From assembly GCA_050115495.1 (NCBI GenBank), contig JASFQK010000004.1:125609-189608 (forward strand): a DNA stretch of 64,000 nucleotides, written 5' to 3'. The position numbers and the translations under genes were made by a program. The DNA is from Phycisphaerae bacterium. GTDB lineage: Bacteria > Planctomycetota > Phycisphaerae > UBA1845 > Fen-1342. Under the pieces are notes generated by a model. The model had not been told where the DNA came from. It did not search any database and saw only the letters and a list, made by a program, of their open reading frames with translations. Shown in pieces: positions 45,302 to 54,397 of this stretch; within the stretch, counting starts at the first letter, position 1, and each line of letters begins with the position of its first letter.

Positions 45302-47158
45302 ATGTTGTCTTCTCGCGGGCAGCGACAATTGACGAGATTGGTGCAGCGGCGCGCCGGCTGGCGGATTCTGGCGGCCGTTGTTGCGTTTGGGGTGCTGGCC
45401 GCGGTGAGTTTAGCGGCGACGCCGACCGATGCGGCGCCGGTAGTCGCTACGCAATCGGCCGCGGCGCCGGCGGTGGCTACGCAGTCGGCTCCGGCTCCGG
45501 CGACGATGCCTGCGGGGCCGGGGGGCTTCTACGGCATCTGGGTCGTTGTGCCGCCGTTGGTCACGATCATCCTCGCCATCTGGCTGCGGCAGGTGGTGCC
45601 GGCGCTGGCGGTCGGCGTGCTCGTGGCGGCGACGATGCTGGCGTGGTACGACGTGCAGCCCGCCTCGGTGGCCGGCGTGGCCGCGGTGGCGGTGGGTGGC
45701 GTGACGCGGGCGACCGAGGGGTTCCTCATTGGTGCGCTCGCCGACAGCCAGCACATGAAGATCGTCGTCTTCACGCTACTCATTGGCGGAATGGTCGGCG
45801 TGATCGGGGCCAATGGCGGAACGCCGGCGATCGTGCACCACGTGGCCCGCTGGGCGTCGAGCCGGCAGCGCGGGCAGGTGACGGTGTGGCTGGCCGGGCT
45901 GATCGTCTTCTTCGATGACTACGCCAACGCGATGATCATCGGGCCGTCGATGCGGCCGATTTGCGATCGGCTGCGCATCAGCCGGGCGAAGCTGGCCTAC
46001 ATCGTCGATTCGACGGCGGCCCCCGTCGCGTCCATCGCCCTGATCGGCACGTGGATCGGGGCTGAGTTGAGCTACATCCAGGACGGGTTGAGCGAGCTGC
46101 ACGATCGGCCGGCGTTTCTGGTGTCGATGACCGCCTACCAGGCGTTTCTCCGCAGCATCCCATATCGCTTCTACCCGATCCTAGCGCTGGTGATGGTGGT
46201 GCTGGTCGGTGCACTCGGTCGCGATTTCGGCCCAATGCGGCGTGCTGAACGCGACGCGCAGGCGGCTCCCGAGGAGGGAACCACCGGCGGCGCGGCCGAG
46301 GTGCAGCCGGGCCGCGTGTGGTATGCACTGGTGCCCGTGGCGGTGTTGGTGTGCGGAACGCTCGCGCTGCTGGTGATCACCGGTTGGCCGGCGGGCGGGC
46401 TGGCCGCCGTGCAGGTGCCGCCGGAGACGCCACGCTGGATCGGCGTGATGGCGGAGATTCTGTACGAGTGTGATTCATACAACTCGATTCTGTATGGTGC
46501 CTTGGCTGCCGTGGTCGTCGCTGCCGGCATCTCGCTGGTGACGCGGGCGCTGAGCCTGGCGCGTACGGTCGAGAGCGCCATGGCCGTGATGTCGCGCATG
46601 CTGCCAACGGTCGTCGTGCTGGTGCTGGCGTGGGCGTTGTCGGCGGCGGTGCAGGCGTTGCAGCTCGGCGAGGTGGCGACGGACCTGCTGAAGCAGGGCG
46701 GGTTCGCGGCCCGCTGGCTGCCGCTGCTGGTGTTTGGGACGGCGTGCGTGGTTTCTTTCGCCACGGGCACGTCGTGGGGGACGATGGGCATTCTCTGCCC
46801 GGTGGTGGTGACGATCGCCGCCGGGTTGCTGGGAGCGGTGCCGGCGGGCGAGGCGGAGCCGCTGTTCTACGCGTCGGTGGGGGCGGTGCTGGCGGGGGCG
46901 GTTTTCGGGGATCACTGCTCGCCGATCAGTGATACGACCGTGCTGTCGTCGCTGGCCAGCGAGTGCACGCTGGAGAAGCACGTCTGGACACAGATGCCGT
47001 ATGCCCTGGTCGTGGCGGTGGTCTCAACGCTGTCGGGCGAAGTCCTGTGCCGCTGGCTCGACTGGCCTGCCTGGGGGGCGTTGCTGATTGGGACGGCGGC
47101 GCTGGCGGCGATCGTGTTGGTGATCGGTCGGCGGCCGGCGCCCGCTCACGCGGGGTGA
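45302..47158 (+). CDS. Na+/H+ antiporter NhaC family protein
   Basis: FFDDYAN, KLAYIVDSTAAP, FATGTSWGTMGI, GAVFGDHCSPISDTTVLSS, HVWTQMPYA. Confidence 0.9.
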   Translation: MLSSRGQRQLTRLVQRRAGWRILAAVVAFGVLAAVSLAATPTDAAPVVATQSAAAPAVATQSAPAPATMPAGPGGFYGIWVVVPPLVTIILAIWLRQVVPALAVGVLVAATMLAWYDVQPASVAGVAAVAVGGVTRATEGFLIGALADSQHMKIVVFTLLIGGMVGVIGANGGTPAIVHHVARWASSRQRGQVTVWLAGLIVFFDDYANAMIIGPSMRPICDRLRISRAKLAYIVDSTAAPVASIALIGTWIGAELSYIQDGLSELHDRPAFLVSMTAYQAFLRSIPYRFYPILALVMVVLVGALGRDFGPMRRAERDAQAAPEEGTTGGAAEVQPGRVWYALVPVAVLVCGTLALLVITGWPAGGLAAVQVPPETPRWIGVMAEILYECDSYNSILYGALAAVVVAAGISLVTRALSLARTVESAMAVMSRMLPTVVVLVLAWALSAAVQALQLGEVATDLLKQGGFAARWLPLLVFGTACVVSFATGTSWGTMGILCPVVVTIAAGLLGAVPAGEAEPLFYASVGAVLAGAVFGDHCSPISDTTVLSSLASECTLEKHVWTQMPYALVVAVVSTLSGEVLCRWLDWPAWGALLIGTAALAAIVLVIGRRPAPAHAG

Positions 47159-47221
47159 CCTGGCTGAGCAAGGGGGGCGACCCGCTGCACGCGAGCCCGG
47201 GGTGGGATATGATTCCGACAC

Positions 47222-48247
47222 ATGGCTCCGCCGGAGAAGAAGACAAGGCGTGAACCGGGCGACGCGCGCATGACGCTCGGTGAGCATCTCGATGAGCTGC
47301 GGACGTGTCTCGTGCGCAGCCTGATCGTGCTCGTCATCACGGCCCTGGCGTGCATCTGGCCGTCGAAGTACCTGTTGGCGATTCTCACCCGCCCGGTCGT
47401 GTTGGCTCTGCGGGCGCACGGTCAGCCGGATAGCCTTCTGGCCACGAGCCCCGTCGAGAGCATCGTCGTCTACATCAAGGTCGTACTGATCGCCGCCCTG
47501 ATCATCGCGGGGCCGGTCATTCTGTATCAGTTCTGGAGTTTCGTCGCCGCCGGGCTGTACCCGAAGGAGAAGGCCTGGGTCTATCGGCTGGTGCCGGTGA
47601 GTGCCGCGCTGTTCATCGTCGGCGTCGTGTTCATGTACTTGTTCGTGCTCGTGCTGAGCCTGAATTTCCTGGTGGGTTTCAGCGACTGGCTGCGGTTGCC
47701 GGACGCGAAACCGGGGCTCTACGAGCGGATAGTGTTGGGGCTGGGGGACGATGAGGGGGCGACGTCGCAGCCGGTTACGCCGGAATTGTGGCCGACTGTT
47801 CCGCTGCTGACTGAGGACCCAAAGGACCCGCCGCCCGGCGCCATATGGTTCAACGTCAGCGACAATCGGCTGAAAGTTCACGAGCGTCGGCACGACGGCC
47901 CGCGGACGTACTCGTACCAGTTTCAGCGGGACGATCGGCGGGCGATGGTCACGACGCACTTCAAGATCGGCGAGTACCTGAGCTTTGTGCTGGTGCTGAC
48001 GATCGCGTTCGGGCTGGCGTTTCAGTTGCCGCTGGTCGTGATCTTCCTGGTGCGGTCGGGACTGGTTTCGGTGCAGACGTTCCGGCGATATCGCAAGCTC
48101 GTGATCCTGGCGATCGTGTTCATCGCGGGCTGCCTGGCCCCGCCGGACTTGTTGAGCCATATGTTGTTATCGGGCCCGATGATCCTGTTGTTCGAGATTG
48201 GGCTGTTCATCGCGGCGCGGAAGAAGCGGGCGCCGGCGGAGGCGTGA
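47222..48247 (+). CDS. tatC: Twin-arginine translocase subunit TatC (with enlarged periplasmic loop)
   Basis: MTLGEHLDELRTCL, SPVE, YQFWSFVAAGLYPKEK, FGLAFQLP, PPD, MILLFEIG. Confidence 0.93.
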   Translation: MAPPEKKTRREPGDARMTLGEHLDELRTCLVRSLIVLVITALACIWPSKYLLAILTRPVVLALRAHGQPDSLLATSPVESIVVYIKVVLIAALIIAGPVILYQFWSFVAAGLYPKEKAWVYRLVPVSAALFIVGVVFMYLFVLVLSLNFLVGFSDWLRLPDAKPGLYERIVLGLGDDEGATSQPVTPELWPTVPLLTEDPKDPPPGAIWFNVSDNRLKVHERRHDGPRTYSYQFQRDDRRAMVTTHFKIGEYLSFVLVLTIAFGLAFQLPLVVIFLVRSGLVSVQTFRRYRKLVILAIVFIAGCLAPPDLLSHMLLSGPMILLFEIGLFIAARKKRAPAEA

Positions 48248-48290
48248 TTCGGCGGGCGCCGCCGCGTGGGTTTGGTGGGGGGCGGGGGCC

Positions 48291-48319
48291 TTGACGTGTT
48301 GGGGGGGATTGCGTAACTT
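48291..48319 (+). promoter_or_regulatory. sigma70 promoter of the tRNA pair
   Basis: TTGACG-N17-TAACTT. Confidence 0.6.
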
Positions 48320-48366
48320 TGATGTTCTGCCGATAAGGCGAGCGGGTCGGCGGAGCCGCCGGCACG

Positions 48367-48439
<73 letters not shown>

Positions 48440-48467
48440 CTGTCCGGATAACTGAATAGACCGTCCT

Positions 48468-48540
<73 letters not shown>

Positions 48541-48657
48541 TTCTTCGCAAACCACGTCGAGCGTTACGCTTGGCGTACCTGATCCAGGGGGTTCAGCGCG
48601 GCAAACCGAGGGCTTTTGCGCGGAGCACGCTCCGCGCAACGCGCAAAGGATCGCGCA

Positions 48658-48800
48658 ATGCCCCGTCAATCCACCCCGCCCGCCTACCGCAAACGCCTGA
48701 TCCGCGGCCGTGAAGTCGCCGTCGTGACACTCCGGGACCGGGAAACCGGTCGCCGGCGGGATTACTGGCTTGGGGCGTCGGAACGCCTGAGAGCCGGGCC
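48658..48800 (+). pseudogene. Truncated N-terminus of a planctomycete-type site-specific integrase
   Basis: MPRQSTPPAYRKRLIRGREVAVVTLRDRETGRRRDYWLG resembles the arm-binding N-terminus (P.YR...AVVTL...RD.YLG) of tRNA-targeting integrases; about 120 nt downstream of tRNA-Ala; no catalytic domain follows. Confidence 0.55.
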
Positions 48801-48845
48801 GCGTACGCCCGGCTGCTGCACGGCTGGTTCGGCAACATTGCCCGC

Positions 48846-49130
48846 GTGCTGCTTCCCGGGCGGGCGGCGTACATCCGGGGCGGCTGCGCCAACGTCGCCG
48901 ACTACGCGCCGGTGCGGATGGCCGCCGGGCTGTACTTCTCCCAGACGATCATCTGGGTGAAGGAGCACCCGGTCCTCACCCGCAAGGACTTCATGGGCAA
49001 CCACGAGTGGTGCTTCTGCACGTGGCGCGAGGGCGCCGCCCACGTCTTCCTTGGGCCGAACAACGCGACCGACGTCTGGTCAGTCAAGAAGGTCAACCCG
49101 CAGTCGATGGTGCACCTGACTGAAAAGCCT
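48846..49130 (+). pseudogene. Internal fragment of an N6/N4 DNA methyltransferase (phage/ICE type)
   Basis: GLYFSQTIIWVKEHPVLTRKDFMGNHEWCF..W.EGAAH...NATDVWSVKKV...HLTEKP; lacks the DPPY-type motif and the SAM-binding FxGxG motif. Confidence 0.7.
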
Positions 49131-49207
49131 CAGAATCCCACGTCCGCCGCAGGGGGCGAACGCTATAGCTTTGTCAACCCATTTGCACGCGGTTGTGCAA
49201 CGGGGGC

Positions 49208-49235
49208 TTGCAACGCGTGCCGAAAACGGTATGAT
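49208..49235 (+). promoter_or_regulatory. sigma70 promoter of the LysW operon leader
   Basis: TTGCAA(49208-13)-N16-TATGAT(49230-35); predicted start site about 49242-43, coinciding with the leader-peptide ATG. Confidence 0.6.
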
Positions 49236-49242
49236 GCTTCGC

Positions 49243-49311
49243 ATGATGAGCCGTTTGACCACCAAGAAGCCGCAGAAAAACGCCAAGCGCAAGCAGAGCG
49301 CTGCCGGCTGA
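49243..49311 (+). CDS. Lysine-rich attenuator leader peptide (22 aa)
   Basis: MMSRLTTKKPQKNAKRKQSAAG*: 5 Lys codons in a 10-codon stretch, including tandem AAG AAG; not in the ORF track. Confidence 0.7.
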   Translation: MMSRLTTKKPQKNAKRKQSAAG

Positions 49312-49341
49312 AGGTGTGGTCTTACGATATTCTGAACCCAC

Positions 49342-49373
49342 CGACGCCGGCTCCGGTCGGCGTCGTTCTTTTT
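49342..49373 (+). terminator. Attenuator terminator
   Basis: CGACGCCGGC-TCCG-GTCGGCGTCG-TTCTTTTT; its 5' arm can instead pair with 49303-49320. Confidence 0.8.
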
Positions 49374-49422
49374 CCCCACGAACGAACGTCAGCGGCCGAG
49401 CCCGTCGGTAAAGGAGATTCCG

Positions 49423-49533
49423 ATGGTGCCTTTTGCTGAGACGAGTCGGTGGCAGAGCCATAGCCCCGCCGTCAACACGCCTGCCAAGTCCAAGCCTCTC
49501 AAGCGCCAGCCGGCGGTCGCGCTCTGCGACTAG
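49423..49533 (+). CDS. Small ORF (36 aa) with strong RBS, possibly a gene remnant
   Basis: AAGGAG-N6-ATG; MVPFAETSRWQSHSPAVNTPAKSKPLKRQPAVALCD*. Confidence 0.3.
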   Translation: MVPFAETSRWQSHSPAVNTPAKSKPLKRQPAVALCD

Positions 49534-49644
49534 CCGGCCCTCCCTGACTTCCAACCTGAGTGCCTGAGACAGACACCGAGCACGGGCGGATCGGCCGCCT
49601 GTGGTCGTTGGCCGACTACTTCGCAACGAACAAGGAGCGCAACC

Positions 49645-49809
49645 ATGACCGCGTGTGTGATCTGTGGTGGAACCGTGCCTGTGCCCGCCGACGCCATCCC
49701 GGGTGAGCTGATCGAGTGTGCCGAGTGCGGCGGCGAGCTGGAGATTGTCGCTGTCGACCCGCTCGAATTGGCCGAGGCTCCGACGGAAGAGGAGGACTGG
49801 GGGCAGTAA
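49645..49809 (+). CDS. lysW: Amino-group carrier protein LysW/ArgW with atypical C-terminal EDWGQ
   Basis: [63 protein letters not shown] (54 aa, two CxxC, acidic); missed by the ORF track. Confidence 0.93.
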
Positions 49810-49882
49810 CCCGCCGGCGCCAGCCGGCTCCGCACCGGCCTGGCAAGACCATCGGCGGTCGTTCCCCATAGAGGATACAAGT

Positions 49883-50743
49883 ATGATCAGAGTCGGTTTT
49901 CTGCATTCCATCATCCGCAAGGACGAACGATTTCTGCTGGAGGAACTGCGCGATCGGCCGGACGTTGAGGTGGTGTTGATCGATGATCGCACGCTGGCCT
50001 TCCATCTCGGTCGCGACCGCCACGATCTGCATGTGCTGCTGGGACGCTCGCTTAACCGGTCCCGCGGGCTGTACGCGTCCCGCCTGTTCGCTAGCGCCGG
50101 TGTACCCTGCGTCAACATGCCCACGACAGCCGCCGTCTGCGGCGACAAGCTGCTCACCTCGGCAGCCCTGGCGGACCAGGGTGTGCCGCAGCCCGAGGTG
50201 CGCGTCGCGTTCACCGCCGAGTCCACCCTGCGGACGCTCGACGAAATGGGCTACCCGGCGGTGCTCAAGCCGGCGGTAGGCTCGTGGGGTCGGCTCCTGG
50301 CCAAGGTAAACGACCGCGACGCAGCCGAGGCACTGCTCGAACACAAGACCGTGCTGGGCTCGTACCACCACTCGATCTTCTACATGCAGCGGTACATCGA
50401 GAAGCCGTGCGGCCGCGACGTCCGCAGCTTCGTCGTTGGCGACGCGTGCATTGCGGCGATCTGCCGCACGTCGGCGCACTGGATCACCAACACAGCTCGT
50501 GGCGGGACGGTCTCCAACTGCCCGCTCACCGAGGAGCTGTGCGAGCTTTCGCTGCGGGCAGCCCAGGCGGTAGGCGGCGGCGTGGCCGCGATCGACCTGT
50601 TCGAGACCAGCGACGGGCTGCTCGTCAACGAGGTGAACGACACGATGGAGTTCAAGAACAGCATCGACGTCACCGGCGTGAACATCCCGGCCCGGATCGT
50701 CGACTACGTGCTGGACGTGGCGCGGAGGGCTGAACATGAGTAA
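49883..50743 (+). CDS. lysX: Alpha-aminoadipate--LysW ligase (RimK-family ATP-grasp)
   Basis: [61 protein letters not shown]. Confidence 0.93.
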
Positions 50744-51782
50744 GATCAACGTCTCCATCGTGGGTGGGTCCGGCTACGTCGGTGGCGAGCTGCTGCGGTT
50801 GCTACTGGCTCACCCGCACGTCGAGGTGCGGCAGGTCACATCGCAGCGGCTGGCGGGCCGGTCGGTCGGCAAGGCGCATCCCAACCTGCGCGACCGCACG
50901 AGGCTGGCGTTCTGCCAGCTAGACGCGCTGGAGCCTTGCGATGTTCTGCTGTTGTGCCTGCCGCACGGGCAGGCGATGGACGCCATCGACGAGTTCTGCG
51001 CCAGGGCCGGCTGGATCATCGACCTCAGCGCGGACTTCCGCCTGCGGAGCCCGGCCGACTGCGACAAGTGGTACGGCTACGCGCATCGCCGGCCGGAGTT
51101 GCTCGGCGAGTTCGTCTACGGTATCCCCGAGCTGCATCGCGACGCCATGCGCGCTACGACGCTCGTCTCCAGCGCGGGCTGCAACGCGACCGCCACGATC
51201 CTCGGCCTGTTCCCACTGTTCAAGCACGGTCTGGTCGAGACGCGAACACCGGTGGTTGTCGAGGTCAAGGTCGGCTCGAGTGAAGCCGGGGCTACCGCCA
51301 CGTCGGGTTCACATCATCCCGAGCGTGCTGGTTGCGTGCGTTCCTTCATGCCGACGGGCCATCGGCACACAGCCGAAATCGTGCAGGAACTTGGTGGCGG
51401 CCGCGACCTCACCGTGCACCTGTCGGCCACCACGCTGGACCAGGTGCGTGGCGTGTTGGCCACGTGCCATGTCGAGCTGCGCGACGACCTCGACGAGCGC
51501 GACATCTGGCGCGTGTACCGCGAGACCTACGGCGAAGAGCCGTTCATCCGCATCATCAAGGAGCGCGACGGCATCTACCGTTACCCCGAGCCGAAGCTGC
51601 TGGTGGGCACGAACGGTTGCGACATTGGCTTCGAACGCGATCCGCATTCGCGACGGCTGGTCGTGCTCAGCGCGATTGACAACCTCATGAAGGGCGCGGC
51701 CGGCCAGGCCGTGCAGGCCCTGAACATCATGCACGGATTCGACGAAAGGGCCGGCCTGGAGTTCCCCGGCCTGCATCCCTGA
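50736..51782 (+). CDS. lysY: [LysW]-aminoadipate 6-phosphate reductase (ArgC family)
   Basis: [69 protein letters not shown]. Confidence 0.93.
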
Positions 51783-51783
51783 C

Positions 51784-52425
51784 GTGTGCCGACTGCTGGT
51801 AGTTAAATCGACGTCCCCGTTTGCGTGTGAACCGCATCTGTGGGCCTTCGCGCACATCGCCGCACACAGCCCCGAATATCAGGGTCACGGCTGGGGCTGG
51901 GCCAGGCTCGACGGCCACGGGTACTGGCACGTGCACCGGAGCATCCGGCCCATCTGGGAGGATGACCTGGCCTCCTGTCCGGATACCACGCTGTTGATTG
52001 CCCACGCCCGCAGCGCGTTTCGCAACCAGGGCATCGCCGTCGAGAACAACATGCCGTTTCACGACAAGCGCTGCGTCTTCGCCTTCAACGGCGAGCTGCA
52101 CGGCGTCCGCCTCCGCCAGCCGGGCCGAACCGGCGCCGAGAAGATCTTCAACCTGATCCGGCGTGGCGACCGCGGCGATCTCCGGGCGGCGCTCGCCACC
52201 GCGGCGGCGGCGATCACGCGGCACACGCGCTACGTCCGGGCCATGAACATCGTGCTGTCGGACGGATACTCCGTGCACGTGCATTCGGCGTTCAACGAAG
52301 ACCCGGACTACTTCACGCTGTTCACGCGTTCAACCGAACTGGGCTTCATCGTCTGCTCGCAGCCGTACGCCGGCGGCGGCGAGTGGACCCCAATCCCGAA
52401 CCATACCCTGAGGACCTTCACATGA
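51784..52425 (+). CDS. Class II glutamine amidotransferase/Ntn-hydrolase (YafJ/EgtC/Dug3-like)
   Basis: (M)CRLL N-terminal Cys nucleophile, GHGWG, IAHARSA, ENNMPF, FAFNGEL, GAEKIF, MNIVLSDG, CSQP; tightly coupled to lysY (1-nt gap) and lysZ (ATGA overlap). Confidence 0.88.
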   Translation: MCRLLVVKSTSPFACEPHLWAFAHIAAHSPEYQGHGWGWARLDGHGYWHVHRSIRPIWEDDLASCPDTTLLIAHARSAFRNQGIAVENNMPFHDKRCVFAFNGELHGVRLRQPGRTGAEKIFNLIRRGDRGDLRAALATAAAAITRHTRYVRAMNIVLSDGYSVHVHSAFNEDPDYFTLFTRSTELGFIVCSQPYAGGGEWTPIPNHTLRTFT

Positions 52426-53246
52426 TCGTGATCAAGATCGGCGGCGGAGCCGACATCAACCATCGGGCGATCTTCGAAGACCTGCGCCGACTGCTGGACC
52501 GGGGCGAACGGGCGATTGTCGTCCACGGGGCCAACCACGAAATGGCCGAGCTCTCCGCCCGGCTGGGACACGAGCCCTGCTTCGTCCGCTCCGTTTCGGG
52601 ACAGGAGAGTCGCTACACCGACGCCGCGGCCATGGAGATCTTCCAGATGGCCTACTGCGGCAAGGTCAACAAGACGCTGGTCACGCTGTGCCAGGCCCTC
52701 GGCATAAACGCGGTTGGCCTGGCCGGCCTGGACGGCCGGCTGCTGCTCGCGCGGCGTAAGCAGGCTCTACGCGTCGTTGAGGCCAGCCGCCGCCGGATCA
52801 TCCGCGACGATCTGAGTGGCAAGGTCGAATCCGTCAACACGGCGTTACTGGACCTGCTGTTGGGCCACGGCTATCTCCCGTTGATCTGCCCACCGGCACT
52901 CGGCGACGAATCCCAGGCCCTCAACGTCGATGGTGACCGGGCCGCAGCCATGATCGCGGCAGCCATGAAGGCCGAGCGTCTCGTTATCTTCTCGAACGTG
53001 CCCGGCCTGCTGCGCGACAAGGACGACGAGGCGACGCTGATCTCCGAGATCGCGTATGCCTCCATCGGCGAATGCGAGCGGTTCGCCCAAGGTCGCATGA
53101 AGAAGAAGATCATGGGCGCCGCCGAGGCGCTGTCACTGGGCGTCGGCGCGGTCGTCCTCGCCGACGGGCGCACCACGCGGCCGTTGGAAGATGCTCTGAA
53201 TGGACGGGGCACCCTGATTCATCGAACTAATACGAGGTTACCATGA
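52422..53246 (+). CDS. lysZ: [LysW]-aminoadipate kinase (ArgB family)
   Basis: MIVIKIGGG, VVHGA, SVSGQESRYTD, GKVNK, GLAGLDG, LNVDGDRAA, SNVPGLLRD, GRMKKK. Confidence 0.92.
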   Translation: MIVIKIGGGADINHRAIFEDLRRLLDRGERAIVVHGANHEMAELSARLGHEPCFVRSVSGQESRYTDAAAMEIFQMAYCGKVNKTLVTLCQALGINAVGLAGLDGRLLLARRKQALRVVEASRRRIIRDDLSGKVESVNTALLDLLLGHGYLPLICPPALGDESQALNVDGDRAAAMIAAAMKAERLVIFSNVPGLLRDKDDEATLISEIAYASIGECERFAQGRMKKKIMGAAEALSLGVGAVVLADGRTTRPLEDALNGRGTLIHRTNTRLP

Positions 53247-54397
53247 ACGTGAGCGAACTGGCCCGAACATATGAACTGGACGTCTACGCGAAACGCAACG
53301 TGACGCTGGTACGCGGTGCGGGCGCCAGGCTGTGGGACGCCGCCGGCCGCGAGTACATCGACTGTGTCGCCGGCTTTGGCGTCGCCAGCATTGGCCACTG
53401 CAATCCGCAGGTCGTTGCGGCGGTCTCTCGCCAGGTCGAGCGACTCGTGACCTGCCCGGGCAGCTTTGACAACGATGTGCGGGCTCGGCTCTGTGAGCGA
53501 TTGATAGGCATCACGCCATCATCGCTCAGCCGTGTCTTCCTGTGCAACTCGGGAGCCGAGGCGATTGAGGCCGCCATCAAGCTCGCTCGGCTCACGACCG
53601 GGCGGACCGATTTCGTTTGCGCTACGCGCGGTTTCCACGGCCGCACGTTCGGCGCGATGAGCGCCACGCACAACCCGAAGTACCGGCAGGACTTCGAGCC
53701 CGCCGTGCCCGGCTTCAGCTTTGTACGGTTCAACGATCGTCAGGAACTGGAGGCGGCCGTGACCGATCGTACGGCCGGTGTGATCCTCGAAATCGTGCAG
53801 GGCGAGGGCGGGGTCCGCGTCGGCCGGCCGGAGTTTTTCCGGGGGCTCGACACCTGGTGTGCGCAGCGCGGCGTGCTGCTCATCATCGACGAGGTGCAGA
53901 CCGGCTTCTGTCGGACCGGCAGGATGTTTGCGTCGCTACACTACGACCTGCGGCCGGACATCCTCTGTCTGGCCAAGTCGATTGCCGGCGGATTGCCCAT
54001 GGGCGCCGTGCTGTGCTCCGATGCCGTCCCCACGCTGCGTGGCAAACATGGCTCGACCTTCGGCGGCAATCCGCTGTGCTGCGCCGCCGGTCTCGCGGCC
54101 ATCGAGTTTATGCAAGCGGAGCGACTCGACGTCCAGGCGGCGGAGAAGGGCGCCTATCTGATGAATGCGCTGCGCCAGTGCTCGCTCGACAGCGTGCGCG
54201 AAGTCCGCGGCCTGGGTTTGATGGTGGGCATCGAGTTGCGCCACCGGGTCCAGCCCGTGCTGGTGGATCTCATGAAGCGCGGCGTTCTTGCCCTGCCTGC
54301 CGGCCAGACCGTGTTGCGGCTGCTGCCGCCGTTGGTGATTACGCACGCCGAGCTTGACCGCGTGGTGGAAGTGCTGGTGTGCTCGCTGCGGCGGTGA
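53243..54397 (+). CDS. lysJ: [LysW]-aminoadipate semialdehyde transaminase (ArgD family, PLP class III)
   Basis: YIDCVAGFGV, NSGAEAIEAAIK, FHGRTFG, VQGEGG, DEVQTG..RTG, LAKSIAGG, HGSTFGGNP, RLLPPL. Confidence 0.92.
   Translation: MNVSELARTYELDVYAKRNVTLVRGAGARLWDAAGREYIDCVAGFGVASIGHCNPQVVAAVSRQVERLVTCPGSFDNDVRARLCERLIGITPSSLSRVFLCNSGAEAIEAAIKLARLTTGRTDFVCATRGFHGRTFGAMSATHNPKYRQDFEPAVPGFSFVRFNDRQELEAAVTDRTAGVILEIVQGEGGVRVGRPEFFRGLDTWCAQRGVLLIIDEVQTGFCRTGRMFASLHYDLRPDILCLAKSIAGGLPMGAVLCSDAVPTLRGKHGSTFGGNPLCCAAGLAAIEFMQAERLDVQAAEKGAYLMNALRQCSLDSVREVRGLGLMVGIELRHRVQPVLVDLMKRGVLALPAGQTVLRLLPPLVITHAELDRVVEVLVCSLRR

Follow-up and report, generated by a model that had tools for sequence, protein, structure and literature searches.

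The leader attenuators of the enterobacterial thr, trp and phe operons are textbook systems. These attenuators and that of the his operon share with the locus described here a short ORF with codons for the cognate amino acid, a set of protector, antiterminator and terminator helices, a U tract, and a biosynthetic operon behind the leader. The locus lies in a 64,000-nt stretch of a Phycisphaerae genome (the window; positions refer to it unless a contig is named). It differs from the classical attenuators in that it is predicted to sense Lys and to be leaderless, in that its cognate codons are scattered instead of forming a run, and in that it matches no Rfam leader: a covariance-model scan of positions 47000-52000, with E values up to 5, gave no leader family, lysine riboswitch or T-box. 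For lysine itself, Thermus thermophilus reportedly carries a leader-peptide attenuator in its lysine (aminoadipate) cluster, before homocitrate synthase, an account attributed to Tsubouchi et al. in 2005. The Thermus attenuator would thus resemble the present one in the Lys codons of its leader ORF and in the LysW-pathway operon behind it, whereas here lysW is the first gene, no homocitrate synthase was found, and the RNA scaffold is one common to his leaders.

Swapping codons in the his leader of Salmonella changes attenuation, according to the accessible part of the source (PMC4046918). ORFs at the 5' end of the transcript with codons of the regulated pathway, as predicted here, are also described from Deinococcus deserti and mycobacteria. 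The accessible part of the Deinococcus report (PMC4007540) gives 14 leaderless leader peptides, none of them Lys-rich and none before a LysW operon, and that of the mycobacterial report (10.1101/834739) gives leaderless polycysteine ORFs that control translation and not termination. The origin of leader peptides is left open in the available passages of PMC2965389, where repeated emergence from random sequence is set against transfer, attenuators are said to hop between genes, and no sequence similarity is found between Firmicute and proteobacterial His leaders. Three further sources (PMC12998189, 10.1101/2021.12.28.474397 and PMC4833913) are general accounts of the pathway or of leader genes; their available passages include none on control by a Lys attenuator.

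The leader region of the window consists of the following elements.

49208..49235, + strand: sigma70-type promoter with −35 TTGCAA, 16 nt and −10 TATGAT; transcription start predicted at or next to 49243
49243..49311, + strand: leader ORF of 22 codons with Lys at codons 8, 9, 12, 15 and 17, without a Shine-Dalgarno sequence and predicted to be leaderless
49257..49275, + strand: segment 1, the 5' side of the protector, pairing with 49301-49321 when no ribosome is loaded
49301..49321, + strand: segment 2, spanning the stop codon; its partner is segment 1 in the protector and 49336-49351 in the antiterminator
49336..49351, + strand: segment 3, which forms the 3' strand of the antiterminator and shares bases with the terminator's 5' arm
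49342..49373, + strand: intrinsic terminator, a 10-bp stem at 49342-49365 followed by the U tract TTCTTTTT
49411..49533, + strand: Shine-Dalgarno sequence AAGGAG (49411-16) and an ORF of 36 codons (49423-49533), at the position where hisG starts behind homologous leaders
49581..49603, + strand: 9-bp hairpin without a U tract

The preliminary description of this DNA had placed a promoter, a Lys-rich leader peptide, a terminator and a competing antiterminator here, and all four are recovered where it put them. A promoter pattern scan finds the −35 hexamer at 49208-13 and the −10 hexamer at 49230-35, the sole promoter-like site in 48000-50500, against 0.2 expected in shuffles. Similar hexamers stand at equal distance in the homologous leaders described below; the strict pattern is present in 12 of 21, and in those 12 the promoter-to-ATG distance is 5–10 nt. 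The ORF runs from ATG 49243 to TGA 49309-11 and encodes the peptide MMSRLTTKKPQKNAKRKQSAAG. Inspection of the sequence reveals no Shine-Dalgarno motif before this ATG, which is 7 nt past the −10 box. Based on the conserved promoter-to-ATG distance, we infer a transcription start on or beside ATG 49243, so that translation of the ORF would begin on a leaderless mRNA. A second in-frame ATG lies at 49246. The upstream ATGs at 49231 and 49234 were considered as leader starts and are not preferred, being in or beside the −10 box and lacking a ribosome site.

The five Lys codons are more than chance would give: against a Lys background of 2.8% in eight genes of the window, the probability of at least 5 Lys in 21 codons is 2.6e-4, and each of the other two frames contains a single Lys.

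The terminator folds with −20.8 kcal/mol (z −3.5). In the homologous leaders, 98% of its cells are paired and three pairs show compensatory change, a level reached in 2 of 500 shuffles. The antiterminator, which pairs 49303-08 with 49346-51 and 49313-20 with 49336-42, folds with −22.6 kcal/mol (z −3.4). Its pairing is conserved, with 83% of cells paired, and its covariation is not above shuffles (77 of 500 as high). A third helix, the protector, absent from the preliminary description, pairs 49257-63 with 49314-21 and 49268-75 with 49301-09. It is the fold favored by the untranslated RNA, in which the antiterminator has a probability of 0.28, and it completes the classical 1:2, 2:3 and 3:4 layout; the three helices are mutually exclusive.

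We compared the folds available at successive ribosome positions, the ribosome being modeled as a mask that extends 12 nt beyond the A-site codon. With the ribosome on Lys8, Lys9, Lys12 or Lys15, the 5' arm of the terminator gains 10–13 kcal/mol by upstream pairing; the gain is 6.0 kcal/mol on Lys17, the edge of the useful sensing zone in this folding, 2.7 on the stop codon and 3.9 without a ribosome. The cognate codons exceed the stop codon by at least 4 kcal/mol in 21 of 22 homologous leaders, L314 and L316 (not located by the pattern) and L188 being left out of this comparison. By a cruder measure, which is confounded by weak local pairing, 5 of 18 leaders reach the stop-codon threshold. 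In the full transcript at equilibrium the terminator dominates at most ribosome positions, so that read-through must rest on the order of folding, namely on kinetics. Dependence on folding order is usual for attenuators.

These folds suggest a switch of the following kind. A ribosome held on Lys8 to Lys15 would cover segment 1, and segment 2 would then capture the 5' arm of the terminator; the antiterminator would win kinetically, as it is able to form before the 3' arm of the terminator is made. A ribosome at Gln18 or beyond would cover segment 2, and without any ribosome the protector helix would sequester it, either state freeing the terminator. Slow Lys decoding would accordingly lock the arm into the antiterminator, and the polymerase would proceed, while fast translation or none would leave the terminator free, and a scarcity of charged lysine tRNA would be what admits RNA polymerase into the lysW operon. 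It had been proposed beforehand that a ribosome reaching the TGA masks the antiterminator and that stalling at Lys codons frees it; the masked folding agrees with this, as does the match between sensor codons and pathway in 25 strongly scoring homologues. We predict with high confidence that the window leader is a Lys-sensing transcription attenuator, and very likely a functional one.

The sensor need not be read as specific for Lys on folding grounds. Any stall at codons 1–15 frees the antiterminator in the masked folding, and specificity therefore comes from codon content only. Thr6-Thr7, Arg4 and Pro10 could signal as well, and the leader might be a multivalent or general sensor of translation that responds to Thr, Arg or slow ribosomes, before an operon that may also feed ornithine; in Thermus, glutamate adducts are also substrates of the LysW enzymes (PMC12998189). 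However, only Lys is enriched among the codons of the leader ORF, the Thr codons are explained as part of protector segment 1, and the genome has a separate arg cluster. We hold such a broad sensor to be very improbable and keep to Lys as the signal.

The closest relative of the leader within the genome is found before the his operon. Over 45 nt, the window-leader terminator shares 91% identity with the terminator at G000:C22:4288-4332, which belongs to the following leader.

G000:C22:4144-4322: own his-operon leader, with promoter, ATG 9 nt past the −10 box, nine His codons, and hisG behind

Both leader ORFs have the same ..AG-stop ending. Genome-wide, 618 terminator-like sites were called by script, and two of them combine a promoter, a near-start ATG, a short ORF and a terminator; these are the window leader and the his leader on contig C22.

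His-rich leaders also precede hisG at nine loci of the family besides the own one. In the survey of hisG leaders, that of L132 has diverged, that of L135 is cut off, and the loci from other families in the sample are mostly without a His-rich leader; a hisG family match itself is present in only 10 of 36 family relatives and in none of six same-genus genomes. A pattern search located the scaffold before two DAHP synthase genes and one chorismate mutase/prephenate dehydratase gene as well, and there the leader ORFs are rich in Tyr, Trp and Phe. Aromatic versions of the scaffold were seen at L154, L162, L150, L204 and L327.

We built a covariance model, R1, from 13 leaders of other genomes (10 his and 3 aromatic), with the own genome left out. 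Within the own genome, R1 matches exactly two sites: the his leader scores 61.8 bits and the window leader 56.7 bits. The latter match is full-length (model positions 1-95 of 95), and the next best within the window scores 16.4 bits. Among 72 family genomes, R1 gives 21 matches of at least 39 bits, comprising 17 his leaders, 3 aromatic leaders and 1 Lys leader; 13 of the 21 are training rows, and the remaining 8 are 7 his leaders and the window leader. A 150-genome sample of the order adds five strong matches, all of them His leaders before hisG. All 26 strong matches thus divide into 22 His runs before hisG, 3 aromatic leaders before aro or phe genes, and 1 Lys leader. Two others, with weak scores of 25 and 30 bits, likewise belong to aromatic leaders, and most of the rest below 35 bits are ordinary gene terminators. 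At L205 (G069:C299; 24 bits), a short ORF ending in PDPGSG is accompanied by a strong terminator and has a transporter-like gene behind it; this may be one more leader of the kind.

The codon content follows the operon. Among the 22 leaders tabulated, all 17 family his leaders carry 4–9 His and 0–1 Lys, and the four aromatic leaders carry 5–8 Phe, Tyr or Trp and no Lys; the window leader has 5 Lys and 0 His, placed in the same register before the stop as in its homologues. The geometry is common to them as well. In the homologues, the stop lies about 31–43 nt before the terminator and the next start, in most, 39–57 nt past the U tract; the window values (−10 to ATG 7 nt, stop to terminator 31 nt, U tract to next start 49 nt) are within the ranges of the scaffold. 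The Phycisphaerae his and aromatic attenuators share with the window leader the promoter placement, an ORF of 19–26 codons, the ..AG-stop, segments 2 and 3, the terminator stem and the distance to the next start codon, and they differ from it in the sensor codons and the regulated operon. These likenesses suggest that the scaffold is an uncatalogued attenuator family with exchangeable sensor codons. The family appears to be new: a literature search, which most subscription journals lay outside, returned no description of a Phycisphaerae attenuator scaffold, nor of Lys leader attenuators.

The relation between the window leader and the own his leader should be noted, since it bears on where the Lys sensor came from. 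In alignments with 20 partners, the own his leader is the best for the whole leader (122, the next being 116) and for the variable tail (36 against 26), and it ranks first, narrowly, for the spacer past the terminator. The 36-codon ORF has a strong ribosome site and sits where hisG or aroF starts in the homologues; like the homology to the his attenuator, it is absent from the preliminary description. For its peptide, the best partner is the N-terminal extension of the hisG product of this genome, AETSRWQSHSPAVNTP aligning with AEISQTQANPPAENRP (score 38). This score was reached in 1 of 300 shuffles, compared with 20 or more of 300 for each of the other 19 partners; after the 20 comparisons the match stands at about 0.07, and at the DNA level 55 of 1000 shuffles score as well. 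The ORF is likely a decayed stub of the hisG start. Given this likeness of leader, spacer and ORF, and given how widely the His form occurs, we favor a duplication that took in the promoter, the attenuator and the start of hisG and was followed by codon replacement. The copied block would have begun at the promoter and ended about 100 nt inside hisG; its hisG part would have decayed into the 36-codon ORF before lysW. It is likely, as judged from these comparisons, that a his attenuator was copied before an acquired lysine operon and that its His codons were then replaced by Lys codons; we consider a local origin, from the own his leader, to be fairly probable.

The 36-codon ORF was also considered as a second, tandem Lys attenuator of the kind seen in Anaerolineae, and this reading is regarded as unlikely: the ORF, with 3 Lys in 36 codons (P 0.077), is not enriched, and the pairing of the arm of the downstream hairpin, which is without a U tract, is independent of the Lys codons. 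The Gln, Asn and Arg codons among the Lys codons, one step from His, were not taken as a trace of the conversion, since they also occur in unrelated Lys leaders.

The same lysine sensing might have been built on a scaffold from another source, either an aromatic leader or a donor in which the scaffold already preceded lysW, or the likeness might be due to convergence. In its middle part, the window leader aligns better with two leaders of DAHP synthase genes, one of them from the same genus (scores 42 and 35), than with the own his leader (score 27), and a DNA tree of the leaders gives it no firm placement. Moreover, the closest LysX (72–73%) is encoded on the metagenome contig L227, behind a Lys/Arg leader that ends in RRCKRTKRVFG and has a similar terminator stem, and stems of the ACGCCGGC type end ordinary genes in the group. 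However, the leader of L227 scores only 6.8 bits against R1, which makes it a doubtful second member of the scaffold, and ordinary terminators score 35 bits or less, against 56.7 for the window leader. R1 finds no aromatic copy in the own genome, whereas the own his locus is favored by the tail, the spacer and the following ORF alike. Fifteen other Lys leaders of the class differ in sequence, so function does not force the scaffold. An origin outside the his leader is accordingly rated as unlikely, and descent from the his attenuator remains our preferred reading.

The operon behind the leader contains the following genes.

49645..49809, + strand: lysW, carrier protein, ending in EDWGQ; match below the model cut-off
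49883..50743, + strand: lysX (TIGR02144, 330 bits, cut-off 275.6)
50736..51782, + strand: lysY/argC-type reductase gene
51784..52425, + strand: gene for an EgtC-like protein with a class II amidotransferase fold, below cut-offs, standing where lysK is missing
52422..53246, + strand: lysZ, [LysW]-aminoadipate kinase (351 bits, cut-off 223)
53243..54397, + strand: lysJ/argD-type aminotransferase gene; LysJ model match below cut-off

The operon looks lysine-directed, and the earlier view that it is lysine- rather than arginine-biosynthetic is supported on three counts: the genome has its own acetyl-type arg cluster, it has no lysA match, and LysX and LysZ pass models named for lysine. The arg cluster, on C19, contains argG over its cut-off and separate paralogues of lysY, lysZ and lysK, along with argF, argH and carB, which were read from ORFs and not from the family scan. 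The absence of a lysA match applies to an assembly that is 92% complete, and 56 of 71 family relatives do have a lysA match; dapB and dapF are present in the genome. The operon also looks acquired, judging by gene content and phylogeny. No lysX over cut-off occurs in the 71 family relatives, and a search of 60 relatives for a LysX orthologue gave none, the best identities (32–39%) being partial or RimK-like matches. In a quick LysX tree of 107 rows, the LysX of the window belongs to a mixed-phylum clade of 47 rows (99 SH-aLRT), which is separate from the other class members that have Lys leaders.

The EgtC-like gene and the carrier protein were compared across 80 lysX loci. No locus has both the EgtC-like gene (35 loci) and lysK (13 loci), though kin among these loci are not independent, and the operon of the window has no lysK; the EgtC-like protein likely replaces LysK. 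The LysW of the window ends in Gln and not in the substrate-carrying Glu. The same ending is found in 22 of 76 LysW parsed from these loci, 20 of them with an EgtC-like gene, and Glu and Gln endings alternate within the clade that carries this gene. The EgtC-like protein may deamidate the LysW carrier. An isocitrate/homoisocitrate dehydrogenase-like gene and two aconitase-like genes are located at G000:C16:62383-72683, and the search of the 92% complete genome turned up neither a homocitrate synthase gene nor another HMGL-like one.

The region upstream of the leader begins with tRNA genes.

48367..48541, + strand: tRNA-Phe and tRNA-Ala, upstream of the insertion

Past tRNA-Ala (48595-49130), there is a repeated element, 75–85% identical to copies behind several other tRNA genes; the same tRNA-linked element is also found upstream of the own his leader. 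The next 320 nt match part of an ORF on C34 with 92% identity. This ORF, which looks like that of a DNA methyltransferase, has no NCBIfam match.

A copy of the his leader at such a place might be dead or dying, a constitutive terminator with A-rich drift before an operon that is weakly expressed or driven from elsewhere. The leader is a single instance, mobile-element debris lies nearby, and the upper pathway gene was not found in the genome. Against this, the promoter, the reading frame, the place of the stop codon, the U tract and each of the three helices have been kept. No His codon is left, whereas five Lys codons occupy the sensor register in frame, and drift would not match the operon behind. 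We give decay very little credence, even less than a general sensor, and return to a working Lys attenuator derived from a his leader.

Lys leaders as such are not confined to this genome. The 80 lysX loci come from named genomes, and in 19 of them a short Lys-rich ORF is accompanied by a terminator; in 16 of these the pair lies directly before lysW, and nine have tandem Lys leaders, mostly in Anaerolineae. The tandem units of leader and terminator before lysW were seen in Chloroflexota (L066, L072, L074, L075, L084, L086, L087, L094 and L097). Within the class, 400 genomes were searched; of 17 others with lysX, 15 have a Lys-rich ORF and a terminator before lysW, the terminators being identified by script in 12 and by eye in 3. 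These leaders, from other families (L209, L211, L213, L214 and L216-L226), are mostly leaderless-looking and use at least two other RNA scaffolds. L041 and L042, the Phycisphaerae operons closest in gene order, have no such leader. The preliminary description knew of Lys-codon attenuation of a LysW pathway in Thermus and not in planctomycetes. Novelty of the taxon does not hold, Lys leaders before lysW being common in planctomycetes of this class; what is novel is the probable origin from a his attenuator.

The scaffold of the window leader was not recovered from these loci. R1, run over 177 other lysX loci, gives no full-length match above 18 bits, and the best match of any kind (19.3 bits) is to a terminator only. 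As to conservation of the Lys codons in orthologous leaders, these 177 loci gave no orthologue on the scaffold of the window leader. By sequence, the leader appears to have every testable feature of the ribosome-mediated attenuator class except conservation in orthologues.

The textbook mechanism and the wide occurrence of Lys leaders before lysW limit how surprising the locus is. The new elements are the attenuator family with its exchangeable sensor codons and the probable conversion of an attenuator from His to Lys within one genome. Taken together and in this hedged form, a predicted Lys-sensing attenuator with a likely origin as a his copy is a reading that we hold with considerable confidence. 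We lean, less strongly, toward the wider view that a leaderless Phycisphaerae cassette has been re-specified at least twice, from His to aromatic and from His to Lys, and that the hisG stub still stands before lysW in the latter case. The scaffold family would represent a compact, apparently leaderless amino-acid sensor, the specificity of which is set by about five codons, and it could guide the annotation of his, aro and lys operons in planctomycetes that have been little studied. Its paralogous leaders, still recognizably similar in sequence despite different sensor codons and with one pair of them in one genome, make duplication followed by codon replacement directly testable. If the proposed history is true, it shows how a pathway that has just been acquired comes under end-product control, through a few codon changes in a part taken from the host.
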